A DNA stretch of 64,000 nt from an uncultured Desulfobacter sp. Lineage in GTDB: Bacteria; Desulfobacterota; Desulfobacteria; Desulfobacterales; Desulfobacteraceae. The stretch spans positions 4,448,001 to 4,512,000 of the forward strand of contig OY762069.1 in the NCBI GenBank assembly GCA_963665095.1, in the 5' to 3' direction. The notes under the pieces were generated by a model. That model saw only the letters and a list, made by a program, of their open reading frames with translations, was not told where the DNA came from and made no database searches. Each line of letters starts with the position of its first letter. Position 1 is the first letter of the stretch. Positions 1 to 45,263 of the stretch are shown here, in pieces. A program made the position numbers and the translations under genes.

Positions 1-226
1 TATCCTGATTGGGGAAGTTCTGGTTACTGAGTTGCTCTGCATGAATAATTGTCACAGATGCAGGTACATTTTTAACAGAAGTTTCGTATTTGGTTGCTGT
101 TACAGTGACCTCTTCGAGTTGGCTGGCTTTTTTTGAGTCTTCTTCTGTTTCAGCAAAGACCAAACTACAGCTGCCAAGCAGGCAAACTGTCCAGATGACA
201 GATAATACCCATGTCATTTTTTTCAT
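1..226 (-). CDS. TonB-dependent receptor, N-terminal part (runs off the window edge; not in the ORF track)
   Basis: Manual translation MKKMTWVLSVIWTVCLLGSCSLVFAETEEDSKKASQLEEVTVTATKYETSVKNVPASVTIIHAEQL: signal peptide, TonB box (EEVTVTAT), start of plug domain (VPASVTII); RBS GAGG upstream. Confidence 0.85.
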   Translation of the reverse strand, partial: MKKMTWVLSVIWTVCLLGSCSLVFAETEEDSKKASQLEEVTVTATKYETSVKNVPASVTIIHAEQLSNQNFPNQD

Positions 227-33219: not shown

Positions 33220-33627
33220 CTAAAACTCCTTGTAAATCCTTGCCAGAGGATGTCCCTGGGCCTCAATGACAAGATCATTATAGTATCCATACGCGGTTTG
33301 CGATGCATCATAGCCTGCGTTGAGAAGCCGCTCTCCAACCCTGTCTAAAAGTGCTTTTGCCTGATCAGGGTCTGCTTTTTCTTCTCCAAGATGTGTAAAT
33401 GAATGCAGCAGTATTTTAACAACATCCCACTTCCTTGCAAGCCATTTGGCATTTTTAACCAGTTTCGTCTCCGAGGAACTGGTGTCGCCCACATCTTTGG
33501 GTTCAACATGAACAAACGCGACAACCACTTTTTCCCTGGTGTCCGGTCCGGATTCAGGGACATGTTCCAGTGTTTTCATGGTTGGCGTCCAGGCAAATTT
33601 ATCACAATACCAGAATAGCACCCTCAT
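33220..33627 (-). CDS. Stand-alone archaeal-type threonyl-tRNA synthetase editing domain protein
   Basis: VVAFVHVEPKD, LHSFTHL, AYGYY...AQGHPLARIYKEF; RBS GAGGGAG before MRVLFW. Confidence 0.75.
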   Translation of the reverse strand: MRVLFWYCDKFAWTPTMKTLEHVPESGPDTREKVVVAFVHVEPKDVGDTSSSETKLVKNAKWLARKWDVVKILLHSFTHLGEEKADPDQAKALLDRVGERLLNAGYDASQTAYGYYNDLVIEAQGHPLARIYKEF

Positions 33628-33782
33628 TATTTGCTCCCTCATTTTTAAATAGACTGCCGACCGGAAAACCAATGGGTCCTCCATCAGCCGGCTATTGACG
33701 ATTCACACAGGACTTTACCACTGACGCCTTAATCTTTCCAGCCTGGAAACCCTGAAAGATAAGCACCCGGCCGTTCTGATAA

Positions 33783-36789: not shown

Positions 36790-37983
36790 TTAAATGACGC
36801 CTGATTTCCGCAACGCTTTGATCTCTTCTTTACTGAAAGAGAGCAGTTCTGAAAGCAGGGCATCGGTATCCGCACCCAGAACCGGCCCGGCTTTATCAAC
36901 AAGGGAAGGCGTCCGGGAGAGCTTGATAGGGCAGTTCACGATGCGGTGTGGCCCGGCTTCGGGGTGCGTCACCTCTACGATCATATCCCGTTCCTTTACC
37001 TGGGGATCTGCCACAAGATCGGCCATATTATTCACCGGACCAAACATCACCTTTGTCCCTTTAAATGCATCGGCCCACTCCTGATAGGTCCGGGATCGCA
37101 TCAGAGATGTCATGGCCTCGTTAAACTCATCAAAGTGCTTAACACGTCCCAAAGGGGACCCGTAGATTTCATGTTCAATCCATGCTTCTTTTCCAGCCGC
37201 CTTGCAGAAACTGGCCCACAGGTCCACGGAATAGGCAATAAGAACCATGGGTTTATCTTTGGTTTCATACACCTGGAAAGGGGCGGCAAGGGGGTGCCGG
37301 GATCCGATGGGCTTAGGTATTTCACCGGTGGCCATGTACCGGACCATGGCGTTTTCAGCCAGGGCCACCTGGCTGTCCATCATGGAGACATCAACCCATT
37401 GGCCTTTCCCGCTGACCTGACGTTCCAAAAGAGCCGCCTGGATGCCGATTACGCAAAACAGGGCTGCTGCCAGATCCCCGATGGAGTAGCCGACTCTGAC
37501 GGCAGAATCGCCGGCATTTCCGCTGCCTGTCAGGCTGATGACACCGCCCATCCCCTGGGCCAGCATGTCATAGGCCGGCTGTTCAGCATAGGGGCCGGTC
37601 TGCCCGAAACCAGACACTGATGCGTAAACAAGTCCGGAATTGATCCGGTTCACTGCCTCATAGTCCAGTCCAAGCCGCTTCATCACACCCGGACGGAAAT
37701 TTTCCACCAGAATATCCGACTGCTTAATCAGTTCAATGGCGATCTGTCGCCCTTTTTCTTGTTTGAGATCCAGGGTCAGGCTTTTTTTTCCTCTGTTAAC
37801 ACTTAAAAAATAGCTGCTGACACCATTTATTTTAGGAATGCTGTTACGGGTCTGGTCCCCTGAACCGGGGGTTTCCACCTTAATAACATCCGCGCCTAAA
37901 TCTGCCAGGGTCATGGTGGCATAAGGCCCGGCCAGGGCTCTGCAGAAACTCAGCACTTTCAATCCGCTCAACGGTCCGCTCAT
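36790..37983 (-). CDS. Class III (CaiB/BaiF) CoA-transferase
   Basis: LAGPYATMTLADLGADVIKVE, NRGKKS, ENFRPG, SGFGQTGP, catalytic Asp in SIGDL. Confidence 0.95.
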   Translation of the reverse strand: MSGPLSGLKVLSFCRALAGPYATMTLADLGADVIKVETPGSGDQTRNSIPKINGVSSYFLSVNRGKKSLTLDLKQEKGRQIAIELIKQSDILVENFRPGVMKRLGLDYEAVNRINSGLVYASVSGFGQTGPYAEQPAYDMLAQGMGGVISLTGSGNAGDSAVRVGYSIGDLAAALFCVIGIQAALLERQVSGKGQWVDVSMMDSQVALAENAMVRYMATGEIPKPIGSRHPLAAPFQVYETKDKPMVLIAYSVDLWASFCKAAGKEAWIEHEIYGSPLGRVKHFDEFNEAMTSLMRSRTYQEWADAFKGTKVMFGPVNNMADLVADPQVKERDMIVEVTHPEAGPHRIVNCPIKLSRTPSLVDKAGPVLGADTDALLSELLSFSKEEIKALRKSGVI

Positions 37984-37998
37984 GGTTTTGATATATCC

Positions 37999-39207
37999 TT
38001 ATTGGCTGTGGTGAAGGATCTCGTCTTCATACAAGGCTTCTATGTCTTCATCTGAGTAGCCAAGAATTTCCGACAAGATCTGGTGGTTGTGTTCGCCAAG
38101 CTCCGGAAAGGCCCCCGCATCTCTATCCTCCGGCACATGTTTAATTTTCACCGGATTTCCGGCGATGTGAAAGTCCTGTCCGGAGATGGGCACCAGCATG
38201 TTCCGGGCCCTAATCTGATCAAATTCAAACAGGTCGTTGACCTGGTTGATCTTTGAGCAGGGAATGCGTGCCGCATCAATCTTTTTAAGCCAGTAATCAG
38301 CCGGACGTTCCACAAATACATCCTCCAGTATCCCTTTTAACTCATCTGCATGGTTGGTACGCGAATGGTTGTCCTTAAACCGCTCGTCTTCCGCAAGCCC
38401 GGGAAGATGGATCACCTGGCATAATTTTGTGAACAACACATCGTTTCCGGCTGCCACAATAATCTGGGTATCTTTGGTTTTAAATGCGCCAAAGGGCGTA
38501 ATGGAGGGATGCCGCGTGCCAATGGGGGTGGGGGCCTTCTGGTCTACCTGATACCGGGCAATGGCATTTTCAAGAATGGCCACACTGCTGTCCAGCATGG
38601 CAATGTCCACGTGGCCGCCACGGTTGATGATGCTCCGCCGGTAAAGCAGGGAAACTACACCGATTGCTGCAAAAACACCGGCCATGATGTCGGAAATGGA
38701 GGTACCCACACGGGTTGTTTCTCCATTCTGGTTGCCTGTGATGGAGATAAGCCCTGACAGCGCCTGGATGATCATGTCAAAGGCAGGATTATCCGACATG
38801 GGGCCGGTTTGACCGAATCCGCTGACACTGGCGCAGACCAGCCGGGGATTCACCCGGCTGATTGTTTCTTCAGAGAAACCGAGCTCTGCCATGGTTCCGG
38901 GCCTGAAATTTTCCACCAGCACATCTGAATTTTCGATAAGCCTGGTCAGAATCTCTTTTCCCCTGCTGGTTTTCAAGTCAAAACAGATGGACTGTTTTCC
39001 TGAGTTAACCGAGAGAAAATAGGAAGAAATCTTCCTGGAGCCCTCCTCTATGAACGGGCCGATATACCTTGCAAAATCACCACGCTCCGGGCGCTCAACT
39101 TTGATAACCGAAGCACCCAGATTTTTAAGGATAAGAGAACAATAGGGGCCGGCCAGGATATGTGTCATATCCAGGACACGTATGCCTTTCAACGGTTTTG
39201 AATCCAT
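37999..39207 (-). CDS. Class III (CaiB/BaiF) CoA-transferase
   Basis: LAGPYC..LGASVIKVE, ENFRPG, SGFGQTGP, SISDI; start at MDSKPL (the upstream extension overlaps dctP). Confidence 0.94.
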   Translation of the reverse strand: MDSKPLKGIRVLDMTHILAGPYCSLILKNLGASVIKVERPERGDFARYIGPFIEEGSRKISSYFLSVNSGKQSICFDLKTSRGKEILTRLIENSDVLVENFRPGTMAELGFSEETISRVNPRLVCASVSGFGQTGPMSDNPAFDMIIQALSGLISITGNQNGETTRVGTSISDIMAGVFAAIGVVSLLYRRSIINRGGHVDIAMLDSSVAILENAIARYQVDQKAPTPIGTRHPSITPFGAFKTKDTQIIVAAGNDVLFTKLCQVIHLPGLAEDERFKDNHSRTNHADELKGILEDVFVERPADYWLKKIDAARIPCSKINQVNDLFEFDQIRARNMLVPISGQDFHIAGNPVKIKHVPEDRDAGAFPELGEHNHQILSEILGYSDEDIEALYEDEILHHSQ

Positions 39208-39259: not shown

Positions 39260-40309
39260 TTAATGAAACTGTATGGGTTTTCCCTGGGCTCTGGCCTGCT
39301 TGTTTTCATCTGCAATGGCCACCACTTTATTAAACAAATCGTCCGCTTTTGCGCCGAATTTTTCCTGCAGTGGTTTGAAAAATATCCCTGAAAGCGGTTT
39401 AATCCACGTTTGATACTCTTCTTCAGTCCACTGGTGGTATTCCTTAAAATTGTTTTTGTGCTGGGCCTTGATCTTATCCACGACACTGCGGGCGTCATTA
39501 TAGACGTACTCCGGCATCTGATAGCTGACTTTTTCAAAGGCTTTCTTTACAGAGTCAGGCATCTGGTTCCACTTTTCCAGATTCATGCAGACCAGTGCGC
39601 CGTTGCCGCCTGCACGGCTGTGTGTCACAGCATTTGAGATTTCCCACAGTTTGAGTGCCGAAACAGTGGCCATGGATGCATAAGCCCCGTCAACTATCCC
39701 CTTCTGCATGGCCATATATGTCTCTGCAGAAGAGACAGAGACGCCGGTTGCCCCCCAGAACTTGAGTATCCTGGACGATGAGCCCGGTGCACGGATTTTC
39801 AAACCCTTAATGTCGTCAAAGGTTTTAAATGTCCGGGGCCCCACAAGAACCTGAGGCTGGAGGAATCCGGACCAGCCGAGAAATTTCACCCCATCCTTGT
39901 TCAGAACCTTATCAATTTCATTGGCCAGCCGCGATATGATGGCCGCGGAATCTCCGATTTCCCACTTGGTTGTTTCATGGAGGATAAGCAAAAGAGGAAT
40001 TTTCCCTGCATAATAGGCCGGAACAATAGCGCACATGTCAATGGTTCCCTGGATCAGCGCTTCATACTGCTGGCGTGCCTTTACAAGCTGCTGGGCAGGA
40101 TAGAGTGTGATGCCCACCTGGTTGCCGGTCTCCTCTGCGATGCGATCAATAAAGTACCGCCAATAGGTGTTGCGGTAATCGTTGGGGGAAACATACTCAG
40201 ACCAGCTCAGCTGGATTTTGGATCCTGCAAGGGCCAGGTTGCTTGTTCCCGGCATGATCAGCGCCAGAGCCACGAGACATTTGGACAGGCTCATAAGAAG
40301 GTTTTTCAT
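39260..40309 (-). CDS. dctP: TRAP transporter substrate-binding protein (DctP family)
   Basis: Signal peptide, YPAQQL, DIKGLKIRAPG, ETYMAMQKGIVDG; RBS GGAGG. Confidence 0.9.
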   Translation of the reverse strand: MKNLLMSLSKCLVALALIMPGTSNLALAGSKIQLSWSEYVSPNDYRNTYWRYFIDRIAEETGNQVGITLYPAQQLVKARQQYEALIQGTIDMCAIVPAYYAGKIPLLLILHETTKWEIGDSAAIISRLANEIDKVLNKDGVKFLGWSGFLQPQVLVGPRTFKTFDDIKGLKIRAPGSSSRILKFWGATGVSVSSAETYMAMQKGIVDGAYASMATVSALKLWEISNAVTHSRAGGNGALVCMNLEKWNQMPDSVKKAFEKVSYQMPEYVYNDARSVVDKIKAQHKNNFKEYHQWTEEEYQTWIKPLSGIFFKPLQEKFGAKADDLFNKVVAIADENKQARAQGKPIQFH

Positions 40310-40353
40310 TTTCAAATTCCTCCAAAAAGGGTTTAGGACAAATGTGAATGTGG

Positions 40354-41673
40354 CTATGACATCATGTTGGGCAGAAACATAATCACATTCGGAAAAAGTA
40401 TCACAAGCACAATGGCCAGTAAGTACAGGATTACAAACGGAAATGATCCGGTTACAATATCTCCCATGGATGCATGCTCGGATGCGATGCCCTTGAGCAC
40501 AAAAAGGTTAAATCCCACAGGCGGGGTAATGGTTGCCGTCTCCAGCATCATGACGCAGATGACGCCAAAATAGATGGGGTCGAACCCCATTTGGGTGGCC
40601 AGGGGGAAGAAAATCGGCATGGTAGTCAGGATAATGGGCGTGGCATCCATGAAAAACCCAAGAAACATGAGCACAAATAATATCATGATCAGGACCGTGT
40701 AGGGTGAAAATCCCAGATCCACCACAAAACTGCAAAAACCGCTGGACACCCCGCCCCTCACGGCAGCATGCCCAAGTGCCAGTGCACCCAGAAAAATCAG
40801 GATGATAAAGGCGCCGATGCGGACACCGTCAATGGCTGCGTTGAGAATCTCTTTGAACGTGAGGCGTTTGTACAAAAGGCCGATCATGGCCGATCCCACA
40901 GCCCCGATGGAGGCCGATTCGGTGGGGGTTGCAACCCCCAGATAGATGGAAGCAAGTACCAGACCGATCAACCCCAGCAACGGCAAAACATCCAGTATCG
41001 ATTTGAGCAGACTGACGTTTTCTCCCAATGCCTCCTTGGGAATTACCGGGGCCAGGTCGGGGTTCATGATGCAGCGGATAACAATGTAAACGATGAACAG
41101 CCCAACGGTCATGATCCCGGGAAGAAATCCGCCGGCAAACATATGCCCGATGGACTGTTCTGTGACAATGCAGTACATGATCATGGCGACACTGGGGGGA
41201 ATCAGGATACCAAGCCCCCCGCCCGCAGCCAGGGCCCCGATGGATAATTTCATATTGTAGTTGTACTTCTTATATACCGGGATGGCGACCAGTCCCACAG
41301 AGGCTGCGGTTGCCACACTGGTTCCACTGATGGCGGCAAAAATAGCACAGGTCGCCACCCCCACCACGTTTAAACTGCCCGGCAGTTTTCTGAGCCAGTA
41401 TCCGATGCTTTTAAACAGATCTTCGCCAAATCCCGCCCGCTGGGCAAAGAGGGCCATCATGATGAACAGCGGTACGCAGGTAATGGCAAAGCTGTTAAGA
41501 TGATGAAAAAAATAGCCCGGGGCATCCGACAGGAATCGGGTTCCCCCTCCCAAAAGGGCCAGGTTCGCAATGGATGCGATAACCAGGGAAAAACCGACAG
41601 GGATGCCGATTGCAAGAAGGAAAAACAGCGAACCGAACATGATCATGCCAAAGGTATACCATTCTAGATCCAT
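40354..41673 (-). CDS. dctM: TRAP transporter large permease (DctM)
   Basis: FAAISGTSVATA, LGILIPPS, TPTESA, ITPPVGFNLFV. Confidence 0.94.
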   Translation of the reverse strand: MDLEWYTFGMIMFGSLFFLLAIGIPVGFSLVIASIANLALLGGGTRFLSDAPGYFFHHLNSFAITCVPLFIMMALFAQRAGFGEDLFKSIGYWLRKLPGSLNVVGVATCAIFAAISGTSVATAASVGLVAIPVYKKYNYNMKLSIGALAAGGGLGILIPPSVAMIMYCIVTEQSIGHMFAGGFLPGIMTVGLFIVYIVIRCIMNPDLAPVIPKEALGENVSLLKSILDVLPLLGLIGLVLASIYLGVATPTESASIGAVGSAMIGLLYKRLTFKEILNAAIDGVRIGAFIILIFLGALALGHAAVRGGVSSGFCSFVVDLGFSPYTVLIMILFVLMFLGFFMDATPIILTTMPIFFPLATQMGFDPIYFGVICVMMLETATITPPVGFNLFVLKGIASEHASMGDIVTGSFPFVILYLLAIVLVILFPNVIMFLPNMMS

Positions 41674-41706
41674 TTTCTTCTCCAGGCGTTGGGGTAAATT
41701 ATGATA

Positions 41707-42252
41707 TCAGTACTTTTGGGGTTGAAAGGCATTGGGATCATTTAAATGAATCCGCATATAGGCTGCGTAAAGCCTTGACAGGCACTGCAGAAGAAAAAGC
41801 AGAAAACCAAAAGGGATAACGATCATGACCGGCCAAAGCAAGGTTTCATGTTCTGTGGCAGACCGCCACTCTCTCAAATAATAAAGGAGGGTTGTTTTGC
41901 CCCCGAAGTAGATAATAATCACAATACAGATAATCATCGCGATATACCCTGCAGTGGTAATGAAAAACTGAACCTTGGGAGAAAATTTATTGTTCAGCAG
42001 TTCGGCAGAAACATGGGATTCCAGGTAGGTTGCAAAGGCCAGAGCCAGGATGCAGTGGTAGATATAAATGTACGCAGCAAATTCATCACTCCAGGATATG
42101 GGACTGTGGAAAAAATATCTGAAAATAACTGCAATAAAAACCAGCACACAGAGGACAAGGCCCAACAGCCCGGAGATGATGCCAAAAAAGACAGTCACCT
42201 TGTCTATGACCCTGATTCCCTGTTCAATGATGTTCCTTGTCCTCGTTGTCAT
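41707..42252 (-). CDS. dctQ: TRAP transporter small permease (DctQ)
   Basis: Four TM helices, RYFFHSPISWSDE, HVSAELL. Confidence 0.9.
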   Translation of the reverse strand: MTTRTRNIIEQGIRVIDKVTVFFGIISGLLGLVLCVLVFIAVIFRYFFHSPISWSDEFAAYIYIYHCILALAFATYLESHVSAELLNNKFSPKVQFFITTAGYIAMIICIVIIIYFGGKTTLLYYLREWRSATEHETLLWPVMIVIPFGFLLFLLQCLSRLYAAYMRIHLNDPNAFQPQKY

Positions 42253-42486: not shown

Positions 42487-43278
42487 TCAGGTCCCGACGA
42501 ATACCGGGGGTCTTCTTTCCTTAAAAGCCGCTTTGGCTTCTTCATGGTCATGGCTGTTAAGTGCTTCCAGACTCAGTGCATTGAACTTTTGGATATCTTC
42601 ATCTGACGGCTCCGGGTCTCTGGCCAGCCGGTTCAGAATAAATTTAGCGCCCCGCAGCGACAGGGGGGCACAGCGGGCAACCTCTCCTGCCATCTGATAT
42701 GTATAGGACTCCACCTTATCCGGTTCGATCAGGTGGTTGACCATTCCCATGTTTAGGCAATCTGTGCTGTCGTAGGTGCGGGCGGTGAGAAAAATTTCCA
42801 GGGCGGTGTTGAATCCCAGGACCGTCATGAAGCGCTTGAAACCCTGATGGTGTGACACCAGCCCCATTCGGGAGGTGGGAATTCCCATTTTAACGGTGGT
42901 TGAGGCAATCCGGATGTCGCAGGCCAGGGCCAGGGCCAGACCTGCTCCCAATGTATACCCGTGCAGCATGGCTATCACTGGAAAGGGATATTGAACGATT
43001 GCCCGGGAGACCTCTCCCGGATCTGAATACCGGCTCTGGGAAAGATCATGGGAACGCTTGGGCATGGCAATGATATCTGCGCCGGATGAAAAGGCCTTCT
43101 CACCACTGCCCCTTAGAATGACAACCCGGATCTGGCGGTCCGTGGCCAGTTCCTTAAATGTCTGTGTCAAGGCTGACAGGCAGGCCGGTTTCAGTGCATT
43201 CCGCTTGGAGGGGTTGTTGATCGTCAATGTACAGATCTCCCCGTCTTTCTGAACTATCAACTCTTCGTGCATATTCAT
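42487..43278 (-). CDS. Enoyl-CoA hydratase/isomerase (crotonase) superfamily protein
   Basis: NPSKRNAL, AFSSGADI, PVIAMLHG.TLGAG, ACDIRIA, AFKERRPPVF. Confidence 0.92.
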   Translation of the reverse strand: MNMHEELIVQKDGEICTLTINNPSKRNALKPACLSALTQTFKELATDRQIRVVILRGSGEKAFSSGADIIAMPKRSHDLSQSRYSDPGEVSRAIVQYPFPVIAMLHGYTLGAGLALALACDIRIASTTVKMGIPTSRMGLVSHHQGFKRFMTVLGFNTALEIFLTARTYDSTDCLNMGMVNHLIEPDKVESYTYQMAGEVARCAPLSLRGAKFILNRLARDPEPSDEDIQKFNALSLEALNSHDHEEAKAAFKERRPPVFVGT

Positions 43279-43532
43279 TCCTAAATATCCATGTTGAAAA
43301 CAAATTTTATCTGGCAGCATATAAATATTGTATTTATAAAGTTATAAGTTTATATTCTTATAATTAAAAGCAGATGACGCGTCAAGCGATATTTCAGTTA
43401 TTTTTTAAACCCTGTCAGACCATATCCGGCAATGAAACCAGGTAAAGGGCAGACTGGGAAACCTCGTATGGATACCATTTAACTCAGGAAGCTGGACGTG
43501 GTTCCAGTGTTACTGGAAAGGCAAATTAAGCA

Positions 43533-45263
43533 TTGGAACACTTGATTTTCTTTGACCCGGCCGGAAGAACCCAGATTACCCATTCACATGCCCCCCGGCT
43601 TGATACGCTTCAGAACAAATGTATCGGGCTTTTGAGTAATGACCAGTGGCAGGCATACCGCGTCATGCCTTTTATTAAGGAATGCCTGGAAACACAGTTT
43701 CCGGGTTGCCGGATTATGCCAGTGGATACCTTCCCCCAGGGGGTCGCACAGATTGCCGATCCAGGGATGGTTGGGAAAGTGACCGCAGCCGGTGTGGATG
43801 CTGTCATCATCGGGAACGCGTCCTGAGGGTCCTGTGCCACTGCGTGCGGCCGTGCTGCCGCCAGAATGGAAGGTGCGGGGATACCTACGGTTACACTGGC
43901 CCGAAAGGACTTTATCGGTGTGTTCAAGAACGCCCTGTCAGGAACCGGCCTGGCTCCGGAGGCAGCTGTCGTGGAATTTCCTATGAATTTGTTCCTGGCA
44001 GACAGCGATCTTTTGCCCATCCGCAACCGCGTCCATGAATTCCATGACGGACTGACCCGATGGGCGCATGAGGGTACCGCCTCCAACGCGGCCGGCAATC
44101 CAAAGATTACCGTGAGCGGGGCGACCTATGAAGATGCCTTCAATAAAGCCAATCAATTGTTTATTTCCAATCTGTGGGGGGACGGGCTTCCCCTGTTCCC
44201 GCCAACCATGGAACGGGTCGACTGGATCTTGCAGGGCACACCTTTAGACAGAGATCAGAAGATCGGTATCTTTCCTCCCAGGGGCGGGGTTGTCACCGTG
44301 GAATCCTGCGCCATTGCCCTGGCAATGGCAGGGGGGCGTCCGGAGTACCTGCCTGTACTGATTGCCGCCGTGGATGCGTTTCTGGATCCATCGTCCGGGG
44401 CGGCGCATCTTCAGGCCGCCTCCGGAAGCGCGTTCCCGGTTGTGATTGTGAGCGGGCCGGTAACCAGACAGATCCGCCTCAGTTCCACATTCGGCTGCCT
44501 GGGACCGGATCCCCAGAGGCCGGCCGGAGCCAGCATAGGCAGGGCACTGCACCTGATGCAGCAGAATCTGGGTGGCGCGCTGCCTGGAACCGGGTCCATG
44601 GCCAATTTTGGGGCCATGCGGTTCACCAACGTGGTGGTGGCCGAAGATGACCAGGATCTGCCTGACGGGTGGCTGTGCCATGCCGCGGACAGACACGGAT
44701 ATACTCCGGGAACCAACGCGGCATCACTGGTCTTTGTGAACGGGGTGACCAATATCCGGCGGCGCGGCGCCAAAATGGAGACACCGCAGGAGGATGCACT
44801 GCAGGGAATGCACCGTATGGCCGACTTCATGAGAACACCCAATGTGGCCAGTCTGGTGGGCTATGAAAGAGGGACACCCGGCATTTTAATGATACCCCGG
44901 GTGGTGGCCCATCTGATGAGCAAAACGGGCTGGAGCAAATCCGCCATGAAAGCGTTCTTCTGGGAACACTCAAAAATTCCCATGGCCCATTTGAAACGCT
45001 CGGGCGCCTTTTCATGGCTGGAAGTGGACCGGGATCCCGTGACACTGGCAAGCCGGGATCTTGATCCCTGGCCCATCTCTTCAAAACCGGACAATTTTAT
45101 CATTGTCTGTGCTGGCGGGGCCCACCCCACCAACAGCCTGTGGCTTCAGGGATACAGCCCCAATGTCCTTGGACGAAGGCTTGATCTGCCCCGGGATTTC
45201 AGCCGGCTGATCCTTGAATCCAACAGGGATCTGGGATGCGGGTCGGATGCCTGTATGATTTAA
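43533..45263 (+). CDS. Probable UGSC-family selenoprotein (576 aa; Sec at TGA 43824-43826) fused to a large C-terminal domain
   Basis: ORFs 43533..43826 and 43866..45263 share a frame with no other stop: VIIGNAS-U-GSCATACGRAAARMEGAGIPTV, a UxxC...E.AGIP pattern as in GrdB/PrdB; weak hairpin after the TGA; TTG start with GGAAAGG. Confidence 0.82.

Follow-up and report, generated by a model that had tools for sequence, protein, structure and literature searches.

The 64,000-nucleotide stretch of uncultured Desulfobacter sp. DNA analysed here (the window) almost certainly encodes a hidden selenoprotein of 576 residues, in which a single in-frame UGA would be read as selenocysteine. The frame opens with TTG at 43533 and closes with TAA at 45263, and its lone internal stop is the TGA at 43824-43826, codon 98; translation around this codon gives NAS-U-GSCATACGRAAARMEGAGIPTV, and the C-terminal letters are CGSDACMI. 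Translation confirms the preliminary description in treating two listed open reading frames as one frame interrupted solely by this TGA. The features of the gene are the following.

43533..45263, + strand: selenoprotein gene of 576 codons, likely read through one TGA as selenocysteine (reading frame, homologues, AlphaFold2 model)
43551..43988, + strand: UGSC domain, residues 7-152 (structural extent about 25-180), predicted flavodoxin/Rossmann-like sandwich (Pfam, VIA, hhalign)
43824..43826, + strand: in-frame TGA, Sec98 (Cys in 88/88 homologues with the column, TGA in 34 distinct copies)
43833..43835, + strand: Cys101, the C of U-G-S-C and predicted resolving cysteine (Cys in 88/88)
43846..43861, + strand: likely bacterial SECIS overlapping codons Cys105-Ala110 (conservation in Sec copies, fit to the bSECIS consensus)
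44088..45236, + strand: partner domain ('Unknown_1'), residues about 186-568 (alignment to the published fusion, model, fold searches)
45237..45254, + strand: Cys569-x4-Cys574 on a short tail, predicted electron shuttle (homologue conservation; pLDDT about 53 for residues 571-576)

Open reading frame calling with table 11 divides the gene into pieces of 97 and 465 amino acids, and the 465-residue piece stands alone in the protein collection (P0002). The best 120 of the 1507 homologues found include 87 of full length (573-621 residues, 51-60% identical), all 87 with Cys at column 98; one further partial homologue also carries Cys at both 98 and 101, which brings the count to 88 of the 88 that cover the column. 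The remaining 32 begin downstream of codon 98, and five of these truncated database proteins match TGA loci letter for letter, as the preliminary description had anticipated in warning that gene callers would split the gene. TGA occupies column 98 in 34 distinct gene copies, the window copy and 33 others, and neither TAA nor TAG ever stands at this codon among these copies, which were retrieved by motif scan. Searching genomes with the window protein returned 12 loci, each with TGA, and further betaproteobacterial orthologues carry it in 15 of 15 cases. Homologues thus present Cys or TGA at codon 98 and no other residue, and because this holds across the column the TGA is judged, on comparative grounds, to be neither chance nor sequencing error. 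In contigs from four public runs of four studies, one run being possibly the source of the window DNA, no other letter occurs at 43824-43826. Elsewhere in the gene one base is absent, at 45066, in one low-depth contig of run X10, possibly an assembly error.

A family member was found in 34 of 301 Desulfobacterota genomes, many of them with one TGA copy together with several paralogues; the 6.9-Mb host genome yielded a single copy. At one locus (L048:7001-10515) two diverged paralogues lie in tandem, each with TGA, hairpin and tail. A genome search for selA, selB, selC and selD, proposed in advance of this work, found all four: selA (598 bits), selB (348) and selD (367) score above their cut-offs, selD itself contains a TGA, and tRNA-Sec (selC) is present. 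In the genomes of TGA-bearing relatives selA passes its cut-off in five of the five tested. ARAGORN also predicts a tRNA-Pyl (CUA) beyond the window, at G000:C1:900717-900790, so that the host genome, with its Sec machinery, may decode pyrrolysine as well as selenocysteine.

The consensus for bacterial SECIS elements given in PMC13188914 comprises a stem of 4-16 bp, a loop of 3-9 nt with G within its first two positions, a distance of 16-37 nt from the UGA and a minimum free energy of -7.5 or below. The likely element of the window gene has a 5-bp stem (43846-50/43857-61) and a 6-nt loop, CGUGCU, with G second and then U; it lies 24 nt past the UGA, has an energy of -8.7 kcal/mol and agrees with the consensus in each respect. 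Of 34 distinct Sec copies 33 retain all five pairs (TGA+23-27/34-38), whereas none of 19 Cys copies does; the hairpin, first seen on 13 copies, recurred in 14 of the 15 added afterwards. After the loop G every one of the 34 Sec copies has either U (26) or G (8), and the third positions of codons 105, 106 and 109 are invariant in Sec copies only. The exact hairpin of the preliminary description (TGA+19..35) gives way to this shifted one, since across 13 Sec copies the former is paired in 84.6% of cells vs 100% for TGA+23..38. The case for a SECIS is made from conservation rather than stability, because the region folds no better than its shuffles (z +0.72, +0.92, -0.17); the window's own minimum-energy fold differs from the 43846-43861 hairpin, and no stem pair is altered on both sides, so that two-sided covariation is absent among copies that are kin.

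The 5′ arm of this stem begins within the Cys105 codon, which bears on how the active-site helix is read. The preliminary description had pointed to an extra Cys (UxxCxxxC), but UxxCxxxC is not supported as a catalytic motif: Cys105 falls in the SECIS stem, 71 of 87 Cys homologues have Leu at this residue, where PrdB-like proteins mostly carry Val, and Cys105 sits one residue beyond the third Cys of GrdB (+7 vs +6 after U). The sole Sec exception, L159 (G515), carries Leu at residue 105 and falls in with the Leu clade (support 99); its hairpin is another one, with 7 bp perfectly paired around a GGGC loop (-13.6 kcal/mol), and its sequence points either to reversion from Cys to Sec with a newly formed SECIS or to a SECIS shift before loss of Sec. 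Because of the stem overlap, the Leu of the Cys forms and the rebuilt hairpin of L159, we regard Cys105 as dispensable, its identity probably being set by the RNA stem. Against a pure RNA-imprint reading counts a further Cys clade, a single branch of 16 proteins, that retains Cys105, with the Arg107 loop codon altered in 16 of 16; a 401-genome search aimed at the DNA of this clade returned Sec forms. An in-frame SECIS thus appears to be seen shaping an active-site helix, where a catalytic-looking cysteine largely tracks the RNA stem. In the GrdB genes L117, L120 and L122 the third Cys of UxxCxxC also lies, by eye, within a stem just past the UGA, and because of this location it may likewise be SECIS-shaped.

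Membership in the UGSC family, suggested earlier, is borne out by Pfam PF24696 (UGSC), which matches residues 7-152 at 68.6 bits vs a gathering cut-off of 25, with the family's U/C-G-S-C motif present as U98-G-S-C101. The match to NCBIfam NF041046 (43.6 bits) lies under the curated cut-off of 125, and the protein is not assigned to that equivalog; the GrdB, GrdF, GrdH and PrdB models match weakly around the TGA (E 0.01-0.1). Profile alignment with hhalign gives 93.4% (E 2.6e-7, 106 columns) against GrdB Sec domains, with a template of three sequences only, and 95.6% against 20 short PrdB-like proteins, vs 0.1% for an unrelated control; U registers on U and C on C in the GrdB/PrdB alignments. 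The early remark that the UxxC region resembles GrdB and PrdB therefore stands, and from these profiles we take the domain to be a true homologue of the GrdB/PrdB Sec domain.

With PrdB/PrdA and Grd protein B (GrdB/F/H with GrdE/G/I) the window protein shares the UxxC, the helix and E-x-x-G-I-P, as well as the division into a Sec subunit and a larger partner. It differs in that PF07355, the model of GrdB/PrdB, is unmatched in this genome (it matches 60 of 201 genomes of the phylum), in that the partner, unlike PrdA/GrdE, is not a PF09338 pyruvoyl proprotein, and in its third Cys, which unlike that of the GrdB UxxCxxC stands at +7 and aligns with Val/Leu of PrdB-like and Cys-form homologues. 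A search of the genome found neither PF09338 nor PF04723 (GrdA), and control genomes gave no match either. Short PrdB-like selenoproteins (about 160-250 residues, U-P/G-x-C-x-QSVG; L124-L144), which match just the C-terminal part of PF07355, occur in many Desulfobacterota genomes.

The AlphaFold2 model of the read-through protein (137 sequences) has a pLDDT of 94.6 and a pTM of 0.93, with only the last residues uncertain. Residues 25-180 are modelled as a flavodoxin/Rossmann-like alpha/beta sandwich with VIA Z scores up to 9.8, the matches being many unrelated receiver and Rossmann folds. The model thus suggests a flavodoxin-like rather than a thioredoxin-like Sec domain; a thioredoxin fold had been guessed for UGSC in 2008 (PMC2398784). 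A sequence search of the PDB returned nothing below E 0.16 (protein) or 0.78 (profile). The whole-protein fold search was set aside as a clue to identity, being dominated by generic Rossmann/receiver folds.

The fusion of UGSC to the partner domain is not new: it was already published by Zhang & Gladyshev in 2008 (PMC2398784 Fig. S1A, UGSC with 'Unknown_1') and is the usual form among the relatives found. The window stretch AIALAMAGGRPEYLPVLIAAV...VIVSGP matches the rows of that figure by eye over residues about 260-320, and the Unknown_1 segment AV/AI-N-x-VMAGCRPEY...IVxNG was likewise recognised by eye. The two have in common U-G-S-C, an in-frame UGA with a downstream hairpin, a domain with the MAG-x-RPEY motif and a PF24696 match. 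They differ in their cysteines: the marked conserved Cys of Unknown_1 is Gly268 in the window protein and the second family Cys is Val368. All 26 close homologues have Gly at column 268 and Val at column 368, two columns that hold Cys in each of 58 stand-alone partner proteins; the same 26 keep Cys259 and Cys322 almost without exception. The window clade has lost the canonical cysteines of the partner domain and, relative to the Unknown_1 fusion, has gained Cys259 and the C-terminal pair. Since the conserved Unknown_1 Cys is replaced by Gly268, the window protein is best taken as a variant of the UGSC/Unknown_1 fusion. The suggestion that the partner is often a separate gene proved correct, as stand-alone proteins of about 345 residues exist.

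Modelled alone, the partner domain has a pLDDT of 95.4. A VIA search of 48,161 chains gave no match with Z >= 8, which does not prove a new fold; the best, at Z 5.2, was a phage capsid/encapsulin-type sub-domain. No internal repeat was detected in the domain by hhalign (0.2%). By analogy the partner is predicted to bind the substrate, and this assignment is analogy only because the domain has no clear solved relative.

The C-terminal tail is about eight residues long, with low model confidence at its end. Its Cys pair is present in 116 of the best 120 of 1507 homologues, a figure inflated because the homologues are ranked by similarity to the query; among 149 representatives further removed from the query, of which many are fragments, two have it, and among 119 mostly stand-alone proteins none does. 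The less biased count, from DNA, finds the tail in 24 of 33 complete Sec copies, and because the other nine lack it the tail is not essential. It requires three changes on a 49-row FastTree and is confined to fused forms; the trees were quick IQ-TREE and FastTree runs without a root test, and tails were labelled by a motif rule under which two proteins, one having a lone Cys in its tail and the other a more widely spaced pair, scored as tail-less. Five split partners have an N-terminal CxTC motif and no tail, these modules being called thioredoxin-like by motif only. The pattern reads as though tails and CxTC were alternative routes of electron entry, with many members having neither.

A Cys pair at a flexible C-terminus that is proposed to take electrons from thioredoxin is described for class I and monomeric class II ribonucleotide reductases (RNR) in PMC5704485. 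We draw an analogy and claim no homology; the window tail is much shorter, and optional. The host genome holds a trxA-trxB pair, with thioredoxin and thioredoxin reductase over their cut-offs. For the redox relay that had been attributed to the C-terminal cysteines, what stands is a conserved, flexible pair, while the relay itself is plausible only, and optional. The window clade unites Sec domain, partner domain and candidate electron-entry tail on one chain.

The genes on the other side of the intergenic region, all divergent from the selenoprotein gene, form a compact cluster that narrows the hunt for the substrate.

42487..43320, − strand: crotonase-family gene, start probably near 43278 (Pfam ECH_1)
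39260..42252, − strand: TRAP transporter dctQ-dctM-dctP (profile matches; DctP, at 39260-40315, is 74% identical to that of locus L015)
36790..39207, − strand: two family III CoA-transferases, 36790-37983 and about 37999-39207 (no curated NCBIfam cut-off reached)

In the sub-clade of the window protein a gene of CoA chemistry lies within about 6 kb at 7 of 7 loci, which are kin and not independent: a family III CoA-transferase at five, a crotonase at six and, at the seventh, an acyl-CoA synthetase-type gene directly upstream. The scan of neighbours covered 99 of 123 called ORFs at 14 Sec loci. The host genome has only four family III CoA-transferases, and one of the two in the window is 59-80% identical to neighbours at L015, L018 and L019. 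Among about 15 candidates in the genome the window crotonase is the best match for the crotonases of L015 (71%), L019 (59%) and L018 (42%); it is not the best match for those of L016 or L021, so three of five relatives are matched overall. The window crotonase and its L015, L018 and L019 orthologues lack the two catalytic glutamates that typical hydratases have, and these enzymes are perhaps decarboxylases or C-C/C-X lyases rather than hydratases.

At betaproteobacterial loci (80 of 111 ORFs scanned) TctC receptors, whose genes are very numerous in betaproteobacteria, occur at 11 of 16 and a CoA-transferase at 1 of 16. Neighbours of Cys-form loci include MFS transporters, M20 peptidases, molybdenum hydroxylases and UbiD, with no CoA-transferase among the 68 proteins scanned. 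The CoA link is on this evidence lineage-bound and weakens outside the sub-lineage of the window; the theme common to the neighbourhoods is uptake and catabolism of small acids, with substrates that probably differ. A carnitine/betaine pathway was considered and dropped because the L-carnitine model gives the CoA-transferases 127-150 bits, far below the values of about 300-356 bits from the oxalate/dicarboxylate models, none of these scores reaching a model cut-off. A promoter/terminator scan gave no more than chance. The AT-rich divergent intergenic region contains a perfect 7-bp inverted repeat, TTATAAG-N8-CTTATAA, at 43342-43363; the genome has one other site of this kind, and the repeat is a possible operator. 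Directly upstream of the closest orthologue lie two genes (L015:4082-5517), one with ferredoxin-like CxxCxxC motifs, for which Pfam and NCBIfam gave no match at the thresholds used.

How might such an enzyme work? Sec98 and Cys101 very probably form a redox active site. The overall model we put forward, tentatively and at somewhat under an even chance, is a thiol-dependent reductase acting in the manner of D-proline reductase, in which the partner domain binds the substrate and the tail recharges the active site. PrdB is described as attacking the substrate alpha-carbon through its Sec while PrdA binds the substrate (PMC11229817), and GrdB-like proteins have been proposed to cleave C-F bonds too (PMC10838667). 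Because the N-terminal domain is homologous to PrdB/GrdB, we infer a similar attack on carbon: the selenolate of Sec98 would attack the heteroatom-bearing carbon (C-N, C-S, C-O or C-halide) of a small carboxylate, and Cys101 would free the product and leave an Se-S bond, a step whose chance we put just short of even. Re-reduction of this bond by Cys569/Cys574, with thioredoxin in turn reducing the pair as for the RNR tail, is slightly favoured. In the sub-lineage of the window the acid could enter by the TRAP transporter and be made a CoA ester, which would activate the alpha-carbon and so take the part that the pyruvoyl group plays in PrdA/GrdE, a possibility that we regard as doubtful. Coupling to acetyl phosphate is not expected because no pyruvoyl proprotein or GrdA was found, in a search that had no positive control.

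The same Sec98-Cys101, tail and thioredoxin relay would serve a selenol/thiol oxidoreductase directed at S or O (disulfide, sulfoxide, persulfide or peroxide), since a UxxC with a flexible Cys pair suits any thiol relay. A thiol-redox role was indeed assumed by Zhang & Gladyshev (PMC2398784), and neighbours differ widely between lineages. The closest characterised homologues act on carbon, however, the modelled N-domain is not thioredoxin-like, and the recurrent neighbours are carboxylate transporters (TRAP, TctC) and catabolic enzymes rather than stress genes, so that we consider an S/O-directed reductase fairly unlikely.

The partner domain invites a non-redox reading as well, in which Sec or Cys of a lyase or isomerase would either form a transient adduct with an unsaturated acid or serve as a metal ligand and the partner would be a remote relative of the alpha subunit of Fe-S fumarate hydratase. 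For the partner model Foldseek ranks class I fumarate hydratase first (6uoi_A, E 8.4e-4, prob 0.72, TM 0.24), and VIA aligns 186 partner residues across the whole alpha subunit of 7xky_A (Z 4.4, rmsd 5.3); His383, His388 and His531 are invariant in the best 120 of 1507 homologues, and PrpD, HMG-CoA lyase-like, crotonase and aconitase-like proteins occur among the neighbours. The Z score nevertheless falls under the tool's quoted background of 7-8, and hhalign gives at most 1% against 26 fumarase alpha domains; we therefore describe a weak likeness of topology over about 185 partner residues to the alpha/N-terminal domain (7xky, 5l2r, 6uoi) and claim no homology. Partner-domain cysteines, moreover, are not conserved family-wide, and repeated gain of tail or CxTC suggests a need for electrons. 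A lyase or isomerase is on balance quite unlikely, and other explanations collectively receive only a small probability. That the TGA is a true stop, marking a pseudogene or separate products of 97 and 465 residues, is very improbable: gene callers do report the 465-residue ORF, and the SECIS region shows neither a folding advantage over its shuffles nor two-sided covariation, but against this stand TGA alone among stops in 34 copies with Cys in all others, a complete Sec machinery, third codon positions invariant solely in Sec copies and an internal ATG (43866) that lies just past the hairpin with no purine-rich ribosome site seen before it.

Returning to the reductase model, a wider generalisation would place UGSC, as Sec subunit, in a large and so far undescribed class of PrdB-like reductases that do without a pyruvoyl group and whose partner fold has no solved example, with the window clade as a one-chain form that cleaves C-heteroatom bonds of CoA-acids and whose RNR-like tail evolved repeatedly as an alternative to fused thioredoxin; taken as a whole this is speculative and distinctly unlikely. 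Read-through and fusion are ordinary, previously known features of the family, and what the window adds is a corrected SECIS, a new interpretation of Cys105, the cysteine swap with its optional tail and the CoA-linked cluster. UGSC proteins, with 255 sequences, were among the most abundant selenoproteins of the Global Ocean Sampling survey (PMC2398784); they are given as a family of unknown function in PMC1976440 and, in a 2026 review (PMC13188914), as still uncharacterised. No functional study of UGSC proteins was found in the literature searched, whose coverage leaves out most subscription papers and bioRxiv supplements. Natural all-cysteine orthologues (about 58% identity) should be expressible without Sec machinery, which would make the function of the family easy to test.

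The window holds one further gene of note, at 33220-33684 on the − strand, for a stand-alone protein of 154 amino acids that matches the N-terminal domain, presumably of editing type, of an archaeal-like threonine-tRNA ligase model.
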